Source of the DNA: Chthoniobacteraceae bacterium
Lineage (GTDB): Bacteria > Verrucomicrobiota > Verrucomicrobiia > Chthoniobacterales > Chthoniobacteraceae
Reading direction: 5' to 3'
Length of the DNA stretch: 30,185 nt
NCBI GenBank assembly: GCA_031409335.1
Contig: JANNWY010000254.1
Coordinates: 1-30,185 of the forward strand
Shown: positions 4,903 through 11,252 of the stretch, piece by piece
How the letters are laid out: every line of letters begins with the position of its first letter
Position numbering within the stretch: position 1 is the first letter of the stretch
Translations under genes and position numbers: made by a program
The notes under the pieces: model-generated
Databases searched by the model: none
Seen by the model: the letters and a program-made list of their open reading frames with translations, nothing else
What the model was told of the DNA's origin: nothing

Positions 4903-5994
4903 ATGGCCGAAAGAACAAACGTATTCATCGCCTACTGCTTCCCCGAGAAGAGATGGCTCGATCGCGTCCAGGCGGCGCTGGAACCCTTTGCCGGGGCCGA
5001 CCGCTGCGTCGTCTGGGACGAAAGAAAAGTGCGCACCAGTGGCACATGGAAAGCGGAACTGCCCGAGGTGCTCGCCACGACAAAGGTTGCGATGATGATC
5101 GTGAGCGATCTTTTCCTCGAGTCGGATTTCATCACGCGCGCGAAACTTCCCGCGATGCTCGAGCGCGAACGCGAAGATGGCCTCGAAATCTGCTGGGTGC
5201 TCGCGGGCCAGTGCCTGTTCGAGATGGCGGGCTTGAAGGAAGCCGATCTCGGAAACCGCGCGGGCTTGGCATTCGACGGGCTCGGGCTCGCCCAACGCGA
5301 CACGGAGGTCGCGGCTATCGCGCGAAAAGTGGCGGGGCTGCTCGGCGACGAATCACCCCGGCCCACCGACGCGCCGCCGCCGAAAAAGCCATTGCTTCCC
5401 TCGGCGATTCCGCTCGTCGTCGCGCCGAAACCGGTGCCAAAGAAGCGGCGGAATTTTGGCGTGAAAAAAGGCGAAGGCGAGCTGGTGCCACAGCCCAGCT
5501 TGTTGCCGACCGATCCGCCAGCCATTGCGCCTCGGCAGGAACTCGCGCCAGAGCTAGGAGCAAAAACCGCCGCCCCGTCAGCGTCCGCGGCGGCACCGCA
5601 CGAGGCAGCACGGCCAGCGGAGGCTGTGCCGGTGGAAATCACGCCGCCTGCGTCCGCGCGCGAACTTTCACTCACGACCATGATCGAGGCACGGCAGACC
5701 ACCGTGCTGAAACTCAGCCGCCTCGGGCGGAGGATGCTTTTCTTTTCCTACGCGATCGCACTCGCGGCGGTCGGCGTCCTCTTCACGTTCAGCATCGAGC
5801 ACTTCATTTTCGTCGCCGGATTTGCCCTGCTCGTCGCGAGCCTCGCGATGTGGCTGAACGCGCGTTCGCGTTCTCTCGGCCAGGGACTCGTGGCCATGCG
5901 CTACACCAGCAGCGGGCTCGCGGATGAAGCGCTGCCGACCCGCCAGCGGGACGCCCTCGTGCGCAAGGCCGACGACTACCTCGCGCAAAACTAA
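4903..5994 (+). CDS. TIR-domain protein with a Pro/Ala-rich linker and two C-terminal TM helices; catalytic Glu appears to be Lys
   Basis: N-terminal VFIAY...VWDER...W..EL.EVL..TKVAMMIVSDLFLESDFITRAKLP.ML fits the bacterial TIR_2 pattern; two hydrophobic segments near the C-terminus. Confidence 0.8.
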   Translation: MAERTNVFIAYCFPEKRWLDRVQAALEPFAGADRCVVWDERKVRTSGTWKAELPEVLATTKVAMMIVSDLFLESDFITRAKLPAMLEREREDGLEICWVLAGQCLFEMAGLKEADLGNRAGLAFDGLGLAQRDTEVAAIARKVAGLLGDESPRPTDAPPPKKPLLPSAIPLVVAPKPVPKKRRNFGVKKGEGELVPQPSLLPTDPPAIAPRQELAPELGAKTAAPSASAAAPHEAARPAEAVPVEITPPASARELSLTTMIEARQTTVLKLSRLGRRMLFFSYAIALAAVGVLFTFSIEHFIFVAGFALLVASLAMWLNARSRSLGQGLVAMRYTSSGLADEALPTRQRDALVRKADDYLAQN

Positions 5995-6003
5995 CCACCA
6001 ATC

Positions 6004-6855
6004 ATGGCCGTACCAAACACACCCAACGCCGATCTCGAACAGGCGCTCTTCAAGGCGAATCTGAAGGAAAAAAAACTCCGCCGCCGCGCCACGTTCGCCG
6101 CGCTCCTGCCGCTCATCGCCGGCCTCGCGTGGCTTGGCTACTCGTTCATCGAACTCACCACCTGGCAATCGCGCGCCGATGAAATCGCCGCGCAGGAAAC
6201 CGAAACGCAGCACCGCGAAAAGGCCGCCCAGGAGCGCGTCTCCGCCGCCGAAGCGAAGCTCGCCACCACGGAGGCGAGCGTGCAGACCTTCCAGCAGCAG
6301 GAAAAAGCGGCATCGGAACGCGCGACCGATATTCGCCAGCGGCTGGTGAAAGTGCGCGAGGAAATCGGCGGGCTCGGCACGCTGCTCACCGACCTGAATT
6401 CGGCGAAAGCCAAGGCCTCGAAACTCATGGCCAGCGAAGCCGTGGAATCGCAGATCACCGAAATCCGCACCGCGCTCAGCCGCAGCCTCGCGCGCGCCGA
6501 GCAGGAGATCGATCAGGCGCTTCCCGCCGAGGAGCAAAAGGCGCGGATTTACATTTTTGTCCCGGACGATGCGCAGGCCGCGGCGGCGAAGGAACTCGTG
6601 CCAGTTTTGGAAAGCGCCGGCTTTGACGTCGCGGGCATTTCAAAAAACTCCACGCGCAAAATCGACGAATCCGAAGTCCGCTATTTCCGCGATCCGCAGG
6701 ACAAGGCGGACGCGACGCGCATTCAGGATTTGTTTGTGAAACAGACTGGCCAGAGCGACTGCAAAATCATCCGCACCAGCGACCCGGAAAACGCGGCGGG
6801 CAGTCGGAAATTCCAGGTCTGGTTCGCGAAACCCGCGCCCGTGGGAGAACGCTGA
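6004..6855 (+). CDS. Single-TM coiled-coil protein with a C-terminal LytR_C-like alpha/beta domain
   Basis: TM ATFAALLPLIAGLAWLGYSFI; long E/Q/A/K-rich helical stretch; C-terminal RIYIFV...LESAGFDVAGI...SEVRYF..D...A..I...FQVWF. Confidence 0.65.
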   Translation: MAVPNTPNADLEQALFKANLKEKKLRRRATFAALLPLIAGLAWLGYSFIELTTWQSRADEIAAQETETQHREKAAQERVSAAEAKLATTEASVQTFQQQEKAASERATDIRQRLVKVREEIGGLGTLLTDLNSAKAKASKLMASEAVESQITEIRTALSRSLARAEQEIDQALPAEEQKARIYIFVPDDAQAAAAKELVPVLESAGFDVAGISKNSTRKIDESEVRYFRDPQDKADATRIQDLFVKQTGQSDCKIIRTSDPENAAGSRKFQVWFAKPAPVGER

Positions 6856-6863
6856 ATTTCGCG

Positions 6864-7217
6864 ATGACCGTCCGCGCGCTCGAAAGCCAAACGCCTTTCA
6901 CCACCAAGGACGGCTCGACCATCCGCAGCATCCTCGACCGGACCAATGCGCCGGTGCAAAACCAAAGCCTCGCCGAAGCGCGCGTCGCCGCCGGCGGTGC
7001 GACGCAGCGGCATTACCACCGGATCGCGGAGGAGTTTTATTTCATCCTCGAAGGCCGCGGCACGATCGAGATCGACGGTGAAACGCGCGCGGTCAGTCCG
7101 GGCGATGCGATCCTTATTCCGCCCGGTGCGTGGCACACGATCGGGGCGGAGGAAGCACTGCGTTTTCTCTGCTGCTGCGCGCCGCCCTACTCGCACGACG
7201 ACACGTATTTCGAGTAG
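6864..7217 (+). CDS. Cupin domain protein
   Basis: HYH...EEFYFILEGRG and GDAILIPPGAWH cupin motifs. Confidence 0.9.
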   Translation: MTVRALESQTPFTTKDGSTIRSILDRTNAPVQNQSLAEARVAAGGATQRHYHRIAEEFYFILEGRGTIEIDGETRAVSPGDAILIPPGAWHTIGAEEALRFLCCCAPPYSHDDTYFE

Positions 7218-7232
7218 GGCTGGAGGAGCTTA

Positions 7233-7307
7233 AACACAAAGACACGGAGGACACAGAGATTCACAGAGGCGGAAAGACCGGCTTCTTCTCTGTGTCACTC
7301 TGTGTCT
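7233..7307. repeat. Palindromic element of 9-bp-period ACACAGAG(G)-type units
   Basis: acacaaag acacggagg acacagaga ttcacagag ... ctctgtgtcactctgtgtct; the right arm is shorter. Confidence 0.7.
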
Positions 7308-7374
7308 AAGAAATGGCAGCGCATTATCGAGTTGCCAATGCGGGATGCATCGCGAGTCTCTTCCGCTCTTTCCC

Positions 7375-8247
7375 ATGGCCTCGGATACTTCCACCCTCGG
7401 CGTCAGCATCCTCATTCCCGCTTTTAACGAAGAGGGCGCGATCGAGGAGACGGTGAAAAAAATTGCGGAGCAGCGCCGTTTTTTCCGCGAGCTGGAAATC
7501 GTCGTCATCAACGATGGCTCGGAAGATCGCACTGGTGAAATCGCGCGCGGACTTCCCGTGACGCTGCTCGAGCACGAATCGAATCGCGGCTACGGCGCGG
7601 CGTTGAAAACCGGGCTGCAAAAGGCCAAGCACGAGATCGTGATGATCGCCGACGCGGACGGGACTTATCCGCTGGAAGATATCCCGAAGCTCGCAGCGGA
7701 CATCGGCGAATTCGACATGGTCGTGGGCGCGCGCACCGGCGCGGTCGTGCAGGTGCCGTGGATGCGGCGTCCGGGAAAATGGATCATCACGCGCCTCGCC
7801 GTGTATCTCAGCGGCCAGCAAATTCCCGACCTGAATTCCGGCCTGCGCATCTTCCGCCGCGATGTCGCGCTGCGTTTTCTCACGCTTTACCCGGACGGCT
7901 TCTCATTCACCACCACGATCACACTCGCGATGCTCACGAATCACTACCGCGTGAAATTCGTGCCGATCAACTACATGCGCCGCATCGGCAAATCGTCGAT
8001 CAAACCGATCCGCGATTTTACCAACTTCACGATCCTGATCATCCGCATCTGCGCTTATTTCAAACCGCTGAACGTCTTCGTCCCGCCCGCGCTCGTCCTC
8101 ATCATTGCCGGCCTCGTGAAAGGCACGATCGACTACCGCGGCGACGGCCACCTCGGCCTGCTCGCCATCGCCCTCGCGCTGACGGGAATCCAAATGCTGT
8201 TCATCGGCTTGCTCGCGGATTTGATCGATCAGCGGATGAAGCTCTAG
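7375..8247 (+). CDS. Glycosyltransferase family 2, polyprenol-phosphate sugar synthase (DPM1/GtrB-like)
   Basis: SILIPAFNEE, VVINDGSED, NRGYGAA, DADGTY and DLNSGLR motifs; two C-terminal TM helices. Confidence 0.9.
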   Translation: MASDTSTLGVSILIPAFNEEGAIEETVKKIAEQRRFFRELEIVVINDGSEDRTGEIARGLPVTLLEHESNRGYGAALKTGLQKAKHEIVMIADADGTYPLEDIPKLAADIGEFDMVVGARTGAVVQVPWMRRPGKWIITRLAVYLSGQQIPDLNSGLRIFRRDVALRFLTLYPDGFSFTTTITLAMLTNHYRVKFVPINYMRRIGKSSIKPIRDFTNFTILIIRICAYFKPLNVFVPPALVLIIAGLVKGTIDYRGDGHLGLLAIALALTGIQMLFIGLLADLIDQRMKL

Positions 8248-8276
8248 CAAACCAGATGACGCACGCGCGCCGAGTC

Positions 8277-8388
8277 GTAGCTGCGACGCCCTCGTCGCAG
8301 AGGGTGTCCGCGGCGCCCTCGCCGCCCGTCGCCAGCCACGCGGCGGGGGCACCGCGGACACCTTCTGCGACGGGGGCGTCGCAGCTAC
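8277..8388. repeat. REPIN-like inverted doublet of GTAG-type REP sequences
   Basis: 49-bp arms (8277-8325 and 8340-8388) with 4 mismatches and a 14-nt loop. Each arm starts GTAG followed by the hairpin CTGCGACG-N4-CGTCGCAG. Confidence 0.85.
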
Positions 8389-8398
8389 CAGCCCCCGC

Positions 8399-9886
8399 GT
8401 GAACGCCACTGTTTCACGCACGCTGCTCGTCGTCTGGTCGCTCGCGCTCTTCGCCGCCACGCTCGCGCTGAATCTGCGGCACCGCGATTTCGCGTGGTAT
8501 TACCACTCAGACGAAGGCAGCAAGATCGAGCAGGTGCTCGACGGGAAATGGAATTTCAACCATCCGATGCTGCTCCTGCGCGCGTCGAAAATCGCGCTCG
8601 ATCTCAGCGGCACACCCCGCGATCCGCAGGCCGTGGTGGAAATCGGGCGCGCGGTTTCCGCGACGTTCACCGCACTCGCCGTCGTCGCGCTTTCGCTCTT
8701 CGCATTTCAATGGCGCGGCTGGCTCGCCGCGCTTTCCGCGGGCGGTGCGCTGATGCTGCACCACCAGCTTTTCGAGCTATCGCATTACATGAAGGAGGAC
8801 ACCGCGCTGCTCTTCGGCCTCTCGCTCGCGCTGCTGGCGCTCGGATTTTTTGAAGCGCGCCCATCGCTCGCCACCGCGCTCGCGCTGGGTGCCGCGACCG
8901 CGCTCGCCATTTCGGGAAAATACATCGGTGCCATCGTGCTCGCCGCGACTGCACCGACGCTCGCTCGAGTGCGCGGGAAATATCGCAGCGCCGCATTTTT
9001 CGCCGGACTCGCTGCCGTGCTGCTCGCGGTGAACTGGCCGCTCATCGCCGACTTCGACACGTTCCAAAAAAGCCTCGCGCGGGAAACGGAATACGTCATC
9101 GAAGGTCAGAAAGGCAGCACGCGCAGCGTCCCGCACGCGGTCTATTGGAATGTCTTCATCGACAACACCACGCCCGCGATCTGGCTGCTGCTCATCCTCT
9201 TCATCGCCGCGCGCTGGGGCGGCTGGAGCGCCATCACGCTCACGCGCTGGCACGCCGTCGCGTTCCCATTTTACTACGCACTGATGCTCTCGTTTTCGCC
9301 GAAGGAAAACGACCGCTACTTCCTCCCCGCCACGGCGATGTTCACCGTCCTCGCCGCGCTCGCCGTCCCGGATGTCGCGCGTCTTTTTCATCGAAAATGG
9401 GCCGCGCCCCTAGCCGCCGTCGCGCTCATCGCCTGCCAGTTGCCATCGTGGCTGCGCTATGAGCACGCCTTTCAGACCGACGACTCACGCGACTTGCAGG
9501 CGTGGTGCCGCGAGCAGTTGCCCGCCGACGCCGTGATCGCCAAAGACAGCCGCATCTGGCTGCCCGATCCGAAGAAGCCCGACCGCGTTCCGGCGGGCGC
9601 GATCCCGCAGCGAGTGGTCGCGGAGAAATTTGCGGCGGACCTTGGTTCGCTGGATGAAATGCGAAGCAAAGGCATCACGCACGTCGCCGTATCCGAAAGC
9701 GACTACGGCCGCTTTTTTCGGGAATCGCTGCGGCCAAAAGCCGGCGAAGAGGAGGATTTTTCCCGGCGGCGCGCGGTTTACCGGACGCTGTTTGAAAAGG
9801 GCGAACTCGTCTTCGAGCGCAAGCGCGGCACGATGCTTTACCTCCATCCCGGCATCCGCGTGTATCGGATCAAACTGGGCGCTTGA
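8399..9886 (+). CDS. Multi-TM GT-C superfamily glycosyltransferase (PMT_2/ArnT-like)
   Basis: First-loop HSDE, NFNHP, MKED, KY and RYFLP motifs; many TM helices; soluble C-terminal domain; follows the GT2 gene. Confidence 0.8.
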   Translation: MNATVSRTLLVVWSLALFAATLALNLRHRDFAWYYHSDEGSKIEQVLDGKWNFNHPMLLLRASKIALDLSGTPRDPQAVVEIGRAVSATFTALAVVALSLFAFQWRGWLAALSAGGALMLHHQLFELSHYMKEDTALLFGLSLALLALGFFEARPSLATALALGAATALAISGKYIGAIVLAATAPTLARVRGKYRSAAFFAGLAAVLLAVNWPLIADFDTFQKSLARETEYVIEGQKGSTRSVPHAVYWNVFIDNTTPAIWLLLILFIAARWGGWSAITLTRWHAVAFPFYYALMLSFSPKENDRYFLPATAMFTVLAALAVPDVARLFHRKWAAPLAAVALIACQLPSWLRYEHAFQTDDSRDLQAWCREQLPADAVIAKDSRIWLPDPKKPDRVPAGAIPQRVVAEKFAADLGSLDEMRSKGITHVAVSESDYGRFFRESLRPKAGEEEDFSRRRAVYRTLFEKGELVFERKRGTMLYLHPGIRVYRIKLGA

Positions 9887-10946: not shown

Positions 10947-11252
10947 TCAGGGGTGCCCGACTTGCGGAGTTCCTCGTGCGCCGTGCCAGAATCGCGCGAT
11001 GTCCACACGGCAATCGCCGTGATCGACGCGATGGATGATTCGGTAGGAACGGACGATGATCTCCCGAATGGCTGGATCATCGAATTCCGGGACGACGCGA
11101 CCCAACTCGGGAAACTCACCAAGCCGTTTGGCGTTGCTTACGAGAAACTGACCGAAACTGACCGCCCGTTCTGGCGAATCCAGTGAGATGTAGCGAACAA
11201 TGTCGCGGAGGTCGCGGCGCGCCGAGGGTGACAGGGCTACTTGATAACCCAT
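10947..11252 (-). CDS. Type II toxin, RelE/ParE family
   Basis: YQVALSPSARRDLRDIVRYIS.DSP.RA...FPELGRVVPE...IREII..SYRII.R...HGAR. Confidence 0.9.
   Translation of the reverse strand: MGYQVALSPSARRDLRDIVRYISLDSPERAVSFGQFLVSNAKRLGEFPELGRVVPEFDDPAIREIIVRSYRIIHRVDHGDCRVDIARFWHGARGTPQVGHP

Follow-up and report, generated by a model that had tools for sequence, protein, structure and literature searches.

Two adjacent genes in a 30,185-nucleotide stretch of DNA from a Chthoniobacteraceae bacterium (contig JANNWY010000254.1, hereafter the window) almost certainly form a two-gene module. The upstream gene (gene 1, P0001) encodes a TIR domain joined to a two-transmembrane (2TM) helical hairpin, and the downstream gene (gene 2, P0002) encodes a protein with a single transmembrane (TM) helix, a predicted periplasmic stalk and a distal LytR_C-like domain, the head. 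The module is real and conserved, its TIR is a likely pseudo-enzyme throughout the clade, and partners are exchangeable in related modules elsewhere; it is apparently undescribed.

The initial annotation of the locus, made from the sequence alone, had proposed an operon of three co-directional genes with gaps of 9 and 8 bp. Three same-strand open reading frames (ORFs), 4903-5994 (363 aa), 6004-6855 (283 aa) and 6864-7217 (117 aa), agree with this description, and genes 1 and 2 are each single-copy in the 7.9 Mb genome. A sigma-70-like promoter was looked for at the locus and none was found.

Genes 1 and 2 are linked and co-inherited

Orthologues of gene 2 occur in 26 of the 151 genomes of the family, in 7 of 29 genera and in 15/29 genomes within one genus. 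In all 25 other carriers a TIR-2TM gene lies immediately 5' of gene 2; the locus runs off the contig in G094 and G132, and in G016 it is frameshifted, the partner being truncated. At this last locus (L044:5179-6781) the TIR-2TM gene is spread over two frames, reflecting either decay or an assembly error. Conversely, strong orthologues of gene 1 are confined to the same 26 genomes, and 10 further genomes contain weaker TIR matches. The gene order is repeated at 16/16 metagenome loci, several of which are kin or duplicates. The linkage of the two genes is far beyond chance, some of the loci being kin or duplicates, and this part of the proposed operon was thus borne out.

Across the intact loci the gap between genes 1 and 2 ranges from -4 to 42 bp, with varying flanking genes. 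Protein trees of the two genes (21 loci) have 13 of 18 splits in common and a patristic correlation of r 0.93, which indicates that the genes travel together but not that their products bind, because kin share their history. Among 400 other genomes of the phylum no full-length match to P0002 was found; seven other phylum-wide matches were discarded, their alignment to the profile being confined to its N-terminal TM/coiled-coil segment. The 25 loci have no conserved third gene, and among the 40 neighbours scanned (of 209 called genes) there is no ThsA-type effector. A divergently transcribed DHDPS-like gene lies 5' of the pair in 9/25 loci (L028, L029, L031, L032, L035, L039, L045, L011 and L014); it was rejected as a member and is read as synteny, because it is absent from the window.

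The TIR domain of gene 1 lacks the catalytic glutamate

Gene 1 had been described as a TIR domain with a two-TM anchor, and both parts were recovered: a match to TIR_2 (PF13676) at residues 7-102, whose 24.9 bits fall slightly below the cut-off of 28, and, at residues 277-320, a hydrophobic hairpin. Orthologues of gene 1 reach 29.8-39.3 bits for TIR_2, several of them above the cut-off. The domain aligns closely with TIRs of the LRR-Roc-COR type; its profile matches TcpB, MyD88 and AbTir chains weakly, and there is a weak match to the ThsB model (E 4.9e-4).

TIR NADases carry a catalytic glutamate in helix C. The column that would hold this residue is occupied by Lys in 62, Arg in 8 and Asn in 1 of the 71 orthologues, compared with Glu in 14/14 other TIRs. 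This column, Lys81 in gene 1, was assigned from the glutamate of the outgroup together with the known catalytic motif of TIRs; in the alignments to solved TIRs that were inspected, the match runs out at profile position 77, short of the column. A serine of other TIRs is also replaced (Ala10, Table 1). TIR activity requires the catalytic glutamate, according to the available text of PMC10022894. The TIR of gene 1 is therefore a likely pseudo-enzyme and, judged from its residues, very probably has no NADase activity. Sequence comparison places it among the descendants of a Glu-bearing bacterial subfamily. Over 12 pairs, the ratios of nonsynonymous to synonymous substitution (dN/dS; Table 1) are comparable to those of other folded parts (mostly 0.1-0.3), indicating that the domain is not decaying and is under purifying selection.

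The residues D39, S68, S74, P83, C104, D125 and R132 near the pocket are invariant in 23/23 orthologues. Cys12 (window 4936-4938) is kept in 58/71 and Cys104 (5212-5214) in 23/23, and other TIRs mostly have Ser at position 12; the two cysteines could possibly form a redox or metal site. As a separate observation, a near-identical TIR family with many short or truncated copies is present in Chthoniobacteraceae (L188, L189, L193, L197, L201, L207, L209, L210, L211, L214 and L215).

Predicted architecture of the two proteins

The hairpin domain of gene 1 was modelled by AlphaFold with a pLDDT of 96.5 (helices 2-40, 43-85 and 91-106), and its cytoplasmic tail is its most conserved part (column conservation 0.81). 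Across 24 members no consistent Pfam family was found for the hairpin, the named 2TM effectors, including SLATT, having been looked for; a suspected likeness to TRADD-N-associated 2TM domains was dropped, as it had no Pfam support. Structure-atlas searches returned unnamed clusters, at 0.91 for the gene 2 head and at most 0.84 for the hairpin.

For gene 2, the annotated layout of a basic N-terminus, one TM, a helical stalk and a LytR_C fold was upheld, with 7 Lys/Arg within residues 16-30 and a TM at about residues 29-49. The coiled-coil character of the stalk stands less firmly: the heptad signal is weak, and the assignment draws on cross-hits to SMC/Jet models and on the structure model. In this model (pLDDT 84) a single membrane-crossing helix (residues 8-140) is followed by a second helix (145-172) and the alpha/beta head. 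The 91 helical residues outside the membrane would correspond to a stalk of at most about 13 nm; a second helix that folds back would bring the head closer to the membrane. The whole protein has no Pfam hit, no LCP domain and no NTPase; the model consists of helices and a small head only.

The topology is predicted with high confidence from the distribution of charges. Gene 2 has Lys/Arg counts of 5.7 before and 2.4 after the TM, and the counts give gene 2 an N-in, C-out and the gene 1 hairpin an N-in, C-in orientation. The TIR would thus lie inside and the head outside, and the incompatible topology that had been named as an objection to a joint function was not found.

The LytR_C-like identity of the distal domain, also part of the initial annotation, is supported by both Pfam and fold comparison. 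LytR_C (PF13399) matches 20/20 members at E≤1 (best 9e-5); gene 2 itself scores 19.5 bits (cut-off 22.2), and wider relatives of the head clear the cut-off, for example, P0181 with 34.9 bits. The sole Foldseek match at E≤0.001 was 2m5y, the LytR_C domain of Rv0431/VirR (E 4.1e-4, 97 columns, probability 1.00, TM-score 0.53 on the target), and searching the sequences of solved structures with the head gave no significant match. LytR-C is counted among the peptidoglycan-binding domains in the available text of 10.64898/2026.10.19.760177, while that of the VirR paper describes LytR_C as mediating protein interactions and mycobacterial solo LytR_C proteins as self-associating and affecting peptidoglycan, with wall defects in the mutants (10.1101/2023.11.19.567727). 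The source genome has 7 transpeptidase matches.

The cytoplasmic helix is the most conserved stretch of gene 2 (0.82). Because they are the most conserved parts, this helix and the cytoplasmic tail of gene 1 are the candidate contact surfaces of the two proteins, which probably form a physical complex. A complex prediction with gene 1 residues 250-363 (folded without alignment) and gene 2 residues 1-110 gave a score of 0.01 and was used neither for nor against contact.

Table 1. Features of the two-gene module and the adjoining cupin gene (window positions)
Feature	Position	Strand	Remarks
Gene 1 (P0001), 363 aa: probable pseudo-TIR, variable linker, 2-TM hairpin domain	4903..5994	+	orthologue 5' of gene 2 in 25/25 other genomes
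TIR_2-type domain, residues 1-148, predicted cytoplasmic	4903..5346	+	Pfam E 3e-5; dN/dS 0.09-0.49
Ala10 codon, Ser in other TIRs	4930..4932	+	A in 67/71 orthologues; S in 13/14 other TIRs
Lys81 codon, column of TIR catalytic Glu	5143..5145	+	K/R/N in orthologues, E in other TIRs
Pro/Ala-rich linker, very variable length	5347..5667	+	whole orthologues 270-424 aa; dN/dS relaxed in several pairs
2-TM helical hairpin domain	5668..5991	+	TM ~5731-5790 and ~5803-5862 by hydropathy; cytoplasmic tail ~5899-5961
Gene 2 (P0002), 283 aa: cytoplasmic helix, 1 TM, helical stalk, LytR_C-like head	6004..6855	+	in 26/151 genomes of the family
Cytoplasmic helix (residues 8-28), continuous with TM signal-anchor (29-49)	6025..6150	+	conservation 0.82; model
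Predicted periplasmic stalk (residues 50-172): helix to residue 140, second helix 145-172	6151..6519	+	model; coiled-coil cross-hits
LytR_C-like alpha/beta head	6535..6831	+	weak Pfam LytR_C matches; Foldseek 2m5y
Cupin_2 gene, outside the module; near-core	6864..7217	+	100/151 genomes; 0/26 pair loci

Related heads are found with exchangeable partners

A profile of the head retrieved 440 representatives at E≤0.001, mostly Pfam-negative. Among the best 150 representatives, 115 were scanned: 10 carry nSTAND1, 2 a caspase domain, and 1 each TIR, kinase, pYEATS, TPR and WD40; most of the scanned proteins lack a Pfam domain and show the short TM-stalk-head layout. A search for TIR fusions to a domain of the gene 2 type, suggested with the initial annotation, recovered P0278, a natural fusion of TIR, TM and head with the Glu present, which fits the split receptor proposed there.

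At 79 loci from many phyla (one motif subtype only), a host ORF was available for 77 (58 stand-alone and 19 long), and 2 loci were dropped. Of the long hosts, 16 are nSTAND1-TM-head proteins, 12 of them encoded downstream of a TIR or SIR2 gene. TIR or SIR2 (once CHAT-SIR2) is encoded 5' of nSTAND1-TM-LytR_C-like genes in several phyla (L073, L091, L093, L097, L113, L114, L118, L128, L137, L139, L140 and L144); L091 adds a trypsin-TIR gene, and at L118 a TPR-S/patatin gene lies downstream of the nSTAND1-TM-LytR_C-like protein. Eight of the 58 stand-alone hosts stand behind an effector-2TM gene, 5 with TIR (all Blastocatellia) and 3 with CHAT (L067, L069 and L074; two lineages), and 3 or 4 have a small membrane protein lacking any enzyme domain encoded before them. 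Genes close upstream of stand-alone hosts end in two TMs in 9/25 cases, downstream genes in 0/16. TIR, SIR2, CHAT and STAND loads are thus swapped around a single outer domain, which would be the pattern that established families of sensor-effector conflict systems show.

A Pyrinomonadaceae-type family (251 genomes sampled) repeats the arrangement: 7/7 full-length TIR-2TM genes precede a stalk-head-type gene, one of them frameshifted, and four of the seven loci are already among the 79. The Glu is present in those TIR-2TM proteins inspected; two TIR-only matches in the sample are not followed by a stalk-head gene. Gene 2 is homologous end to end with the Pyrinomonadaceae L081 protein (prob 98.6), whose upstream partner has no enzyme domain.

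Within the family of the source organism, L052:2146-4520 (G022) encodes a Glu-bearing TIR-2TM protein and, behind it, a longer TM-stalk-LytR_C-like protein that has an additional C-terminal domain without a Pfam hit. The L052 TIR-2TM protein aligns across both TIR and 2TM with two gene 1 orthologues, and its TIR is sister to the pseudo-TIR clade, with modest support (93/81) and a long branch. L052 is likely a pair of the ancestral type. Since this sister pair bears the Glu, the catalytic residue was probably lost, as far as the sequences tell, after the gene 1-gene 2 pair had formed.

It should also be noted that LytR_C-like genes stand beside genes resembling those of peptidoglycan hydrolases (GH25-like/SH3/CHAP, DUF2272, CHAP, DUF5675 and Amidase_3; L101, L104, L105, L127 and L103), and that in two Acidobacteriota loci (L082 and L103) large lipase-like and CHAT proteins are encoded immediately 5' of TM-LytR_C-like genes.

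Comparison with known systems

The initial annotation knew of no described system of this composition. This holds, apparently, for a pair without ParA, but systems with ParA, the closest ones described, are in print: the available text of 10.64898/2026.10.19.760177 predicts receptor-like systems in which an upstream TIR or 2TM/caspase effector accompanies a ParA-TM-LytR-C or SPOR protein. The TIR-ParA type has, like the pair, an upstream TIR gene and a type-II single-TM protein with an outer sensor, LytR-C being one option; some of the TIRs in these systems are inactive, and sensing of peptidoglycan breaches is proposed (10.64898/2026.10.19.760177). In contrast to the systems as described there, the pair lacks a ParA or other NTPase, its cytoplasmic segment in gene 2 having 28 residues, its TIR is anchored by a 2TM hairpin, its sole TIR appears inactive, and it has a long helical stalk. 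L144 resembles a TIR-ParA receptor-like system. PCTM systems likewise combine an upstream SLATT, 2TM or caspase effector, these being interchangeable, with a TM protein carrying a periplasmic domain of the peptidoglycan type (10.64898/2026.10.19.760177); PCTM is, however, defined in that text by the cytoplasmic ParA, which is absent in the pair with its cytoplasmic part of 28 residues. The pair thus resembles receptor-like systems on paper but does not belong to them, having no ParA and a TIR that is in all likelihood inactive.

No version without ParA was found in the available text of 10.64898/2026.10.19.760177, the supplement of which may hold some. A literature full-text search, with most subscription papers outside it, returned no description combining a TIR domain with LytR_C beyond that work, and 'LytR' is absent from the main text of PMC8195603.

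The mycobacterial proteins VirR (Rv0431) and Cei (Rv2700), as described in the accessible text, are also membrane LytR_C proteins without LCP, and the fold match of gene 2 is to 2m5y. They differ from the pair, which is found in diderm Verrucomicrobiota and has a 120-residue stalk, 18% identity and an obligate TIR-2TM neighbour. Unlike LCP glycopolymer ligases, gene 2 has no catalytic LCP domain. Animal Toll-like receptors consist of a sensor outside, a membrane crossing and a non-enzymatic TIR inside; the likeness is an analogy of layout only, since the pair comprises two proteins, has no leucine-rich repeats and has a bacterial, Glu-bearing TIR ancestry. Thoeris ThsB and other bacterial TIR NADases have the TIR_2 fold in common with gene 1, which, unlike ThsB, lacks the catalytic Glu, is membrane-anchored and has no ThsA neighbour.

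In Zorya, ZorB needs an acidic residue in its TM. The pair has no acidic TM residue, no PADLOC Zorya match and no linked soluble effectors, and its head is LytR_C-like. The likeness to ZorAB, as given in the available text of PMC11946911, lies in two inner-membrane proteins, one of them single-pass with a wall-binding domain, that pass an envelope signal to the cytoplasm.

Neighbouring genes in the window

The third gene of the proposed operon encodes a cupin, and its gap of 8 bp to gene 2 makes co-transcription plausible in the source genome. An operon of three genes in which the cupin takes part functionally is nevertheless virtually ruled out by the neighbourhoods: the cupin adjoins the pair at 0/26 loci (22 with at least 500 bp downstream) and at 0/16 metagenome loci and was rejected as a member, and in 20 of the 25 other carriers the cupin gene lies either on a different contig or at a distance of about 380 kb. 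The mgtE and glycosyltransferase genes were also rejected, with no match in the 26 pair loci.

The genes at window positions 6864-9886 (cupin, GT2 glycosyltransferase, membrane protein) recur as a conserved series in two genomes of the same genus (L176 and L177). As the cupin stands before the same glycosyltransferase genes there as in the window, the pair was probably inserted between mgtE and the cupin-GT2 unit. A ParE-type toxin gene lies 3.7 kb 3' of the pair (10947-11252, minus strand) and is unlinked to the pair at other loci.

Discussion

The mechanism that we favour is an inner-membrane sensor of defence or cell-death origin that works without an NTPase switch. The stalked LytR_C-like head would reach the peptidoglycan and register a disturbance of the cell wall; strain would run down the continuous helix of gene 2 to its conserved cytoplasmic helix, which would touch the conserved tail of the 2TM partner, so that gene 2 would be the sensor and the 2TM protein the effector or transducer. 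In Glu-bearing relatives clustering would activate the enzyme. In the Chthoniobacteraceae clade, TIR-TIR assembly would instead gather the 2TM hairpins into a membrane-permeabilising oligomer, leading to growth arrest or death; depletion of NAD+ is unlikely in this clade because its TIR lacks the Glu. The split Toll-like receptor of the initial annotation, in which gene 2 clusters the TIR, gains from the linkage, the topology and the P0278 fusion, but the loss of the catalytic Glu (K81) and of the conserved Ser (A10) had been missed, and clustering would not deplete NAD+ here, as the TIR is probably not an NADase. The chances of a role in defence or death are evenly balanced, and those of the whole chain, including TIR-driven hairpin clustering that disturbs the membrane, fall slightly short of even.

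Several observations weigh against this mechanism. PADLOC has no model for the pair. The fold search with the hairpin returned only generic helical hairpins (Z up to 10.8, tied) and no specific match, and in a cross-lineage test of 2TM homology L052 ranked first of 199, marginally, while the other 11 fell among the decoys; judged by their sequences, the 2TM domains of other lineages are without demonstrated homology to the gene 1 hairpin. The flanks change between genomes and are mostly housekeeping genes rather than defence islands, with defence-like neighbours only at L029 (MazEF) and L035 (HsdR_N), and, in contrast to defence genes with their fast turnover, the pair is conserved and present as a single copy. 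In addition, most of the 58 stand-alone hosts have no adjacent effector, and several stand-alone relatives lie beside peptidoglycan hydrolase-like genes (L101, L105 and L127).

Some of these features would suit a domesticated envelope-maintenance pair, that is, a solo LytR_C protein of the VirR/Cei kind with a membrane partner, the dead TIR serving only as a protein-binding handle and the pair having no output in death or defence. The single copy, the co-inheritance, the purifying selection, the housekeeping flanks, the loss of the catalytic residue and the many stand-alone relatives without an effector gene are consistent with it, as are the wall defects of solo LytR_C mutants in the available text of 10.1101/2023.11.19.567727. 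This explanation is unlikely, however: the distribution is patchy (26/151 genomes, 7/29 genera, 15/29 in one genus), without a full-length match in 400 other genomes of the phylum, the position varies between genomes, the L044 copy is frameshifted and truncated, and TIR, SIR2 and CHAT loads are swapped among relatives. It is quite improbable that the dead TIR is a Toll-like adaptor nucleating an active TIR encoded elsewhere, with NAD+ cleavage or a signal as the outcome. Further TIR_2 matches are present in 9/10 carrier genomes tested, the source genome has three Glu-bearing TIR proteins, and for TIR-ParA systems the available text of 10.64898/2026.10.19.760177 proposes that inactive TIRs help multimerisation; but no one TIR family is common to all carriers, no dedicated active TIR partner was found, the flanking genes scanned (40 of 209 called) include no TIR gene, and in G104 (95% complete) the search gave no TIR_2 match but also failed to pick up the gene 1 orthologue there. 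Finally, the altered pocket might, via Lys/Arg81, bind NAD+, ADP-ribose or a cyclic product as its nucleotide ligand and gate the 2TM hairpin, with gene 2 as anchor or restraint. The replacement is non-random, being basic in 70/71 orthologues, and the invariant residues listed above are compatible with binding, but no signal-making gene is linked, the pocket Ser is also lost and Lys/Arg could form a structural salt bridge, so that nucleotide gating is very improbable.

The favoured mechanism, a switch-less sensor with hairpin clustering, can be extended to a widespread class of two-protein trans-envelope receptors, in which a stalked wall sensor and a 2TM partner would carry an exchangeable load (active TIR, CHAT protease or none) and the Chthoniobacteraceae TIR would be a non-enzymatic assembly module, in parallel to Toll-like signalling. 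This generalisation is tentative and, in its full breadth, doubtful. Detection of envelope damage during phage entry is understood for few systems, and the pair, with just two small genes, is a minimal candidate. The natural versions with the enzyme on (Glu-bearing TIR, CHAT), off (Chthoniobacteraceae) or absent allow side-by-side comparison, and the large, mostly Pfam-negative LytR_C-like family of 440 representatives recurs as the outer domain in proteins of the TIR, SIR2, caspase and STAND kinds. Persistence of a TIR domain under purifying selection in seven genera, despite the missing catalytic residue, would demonstrate a non-enzymatic role of a bacterial membrane TIR.

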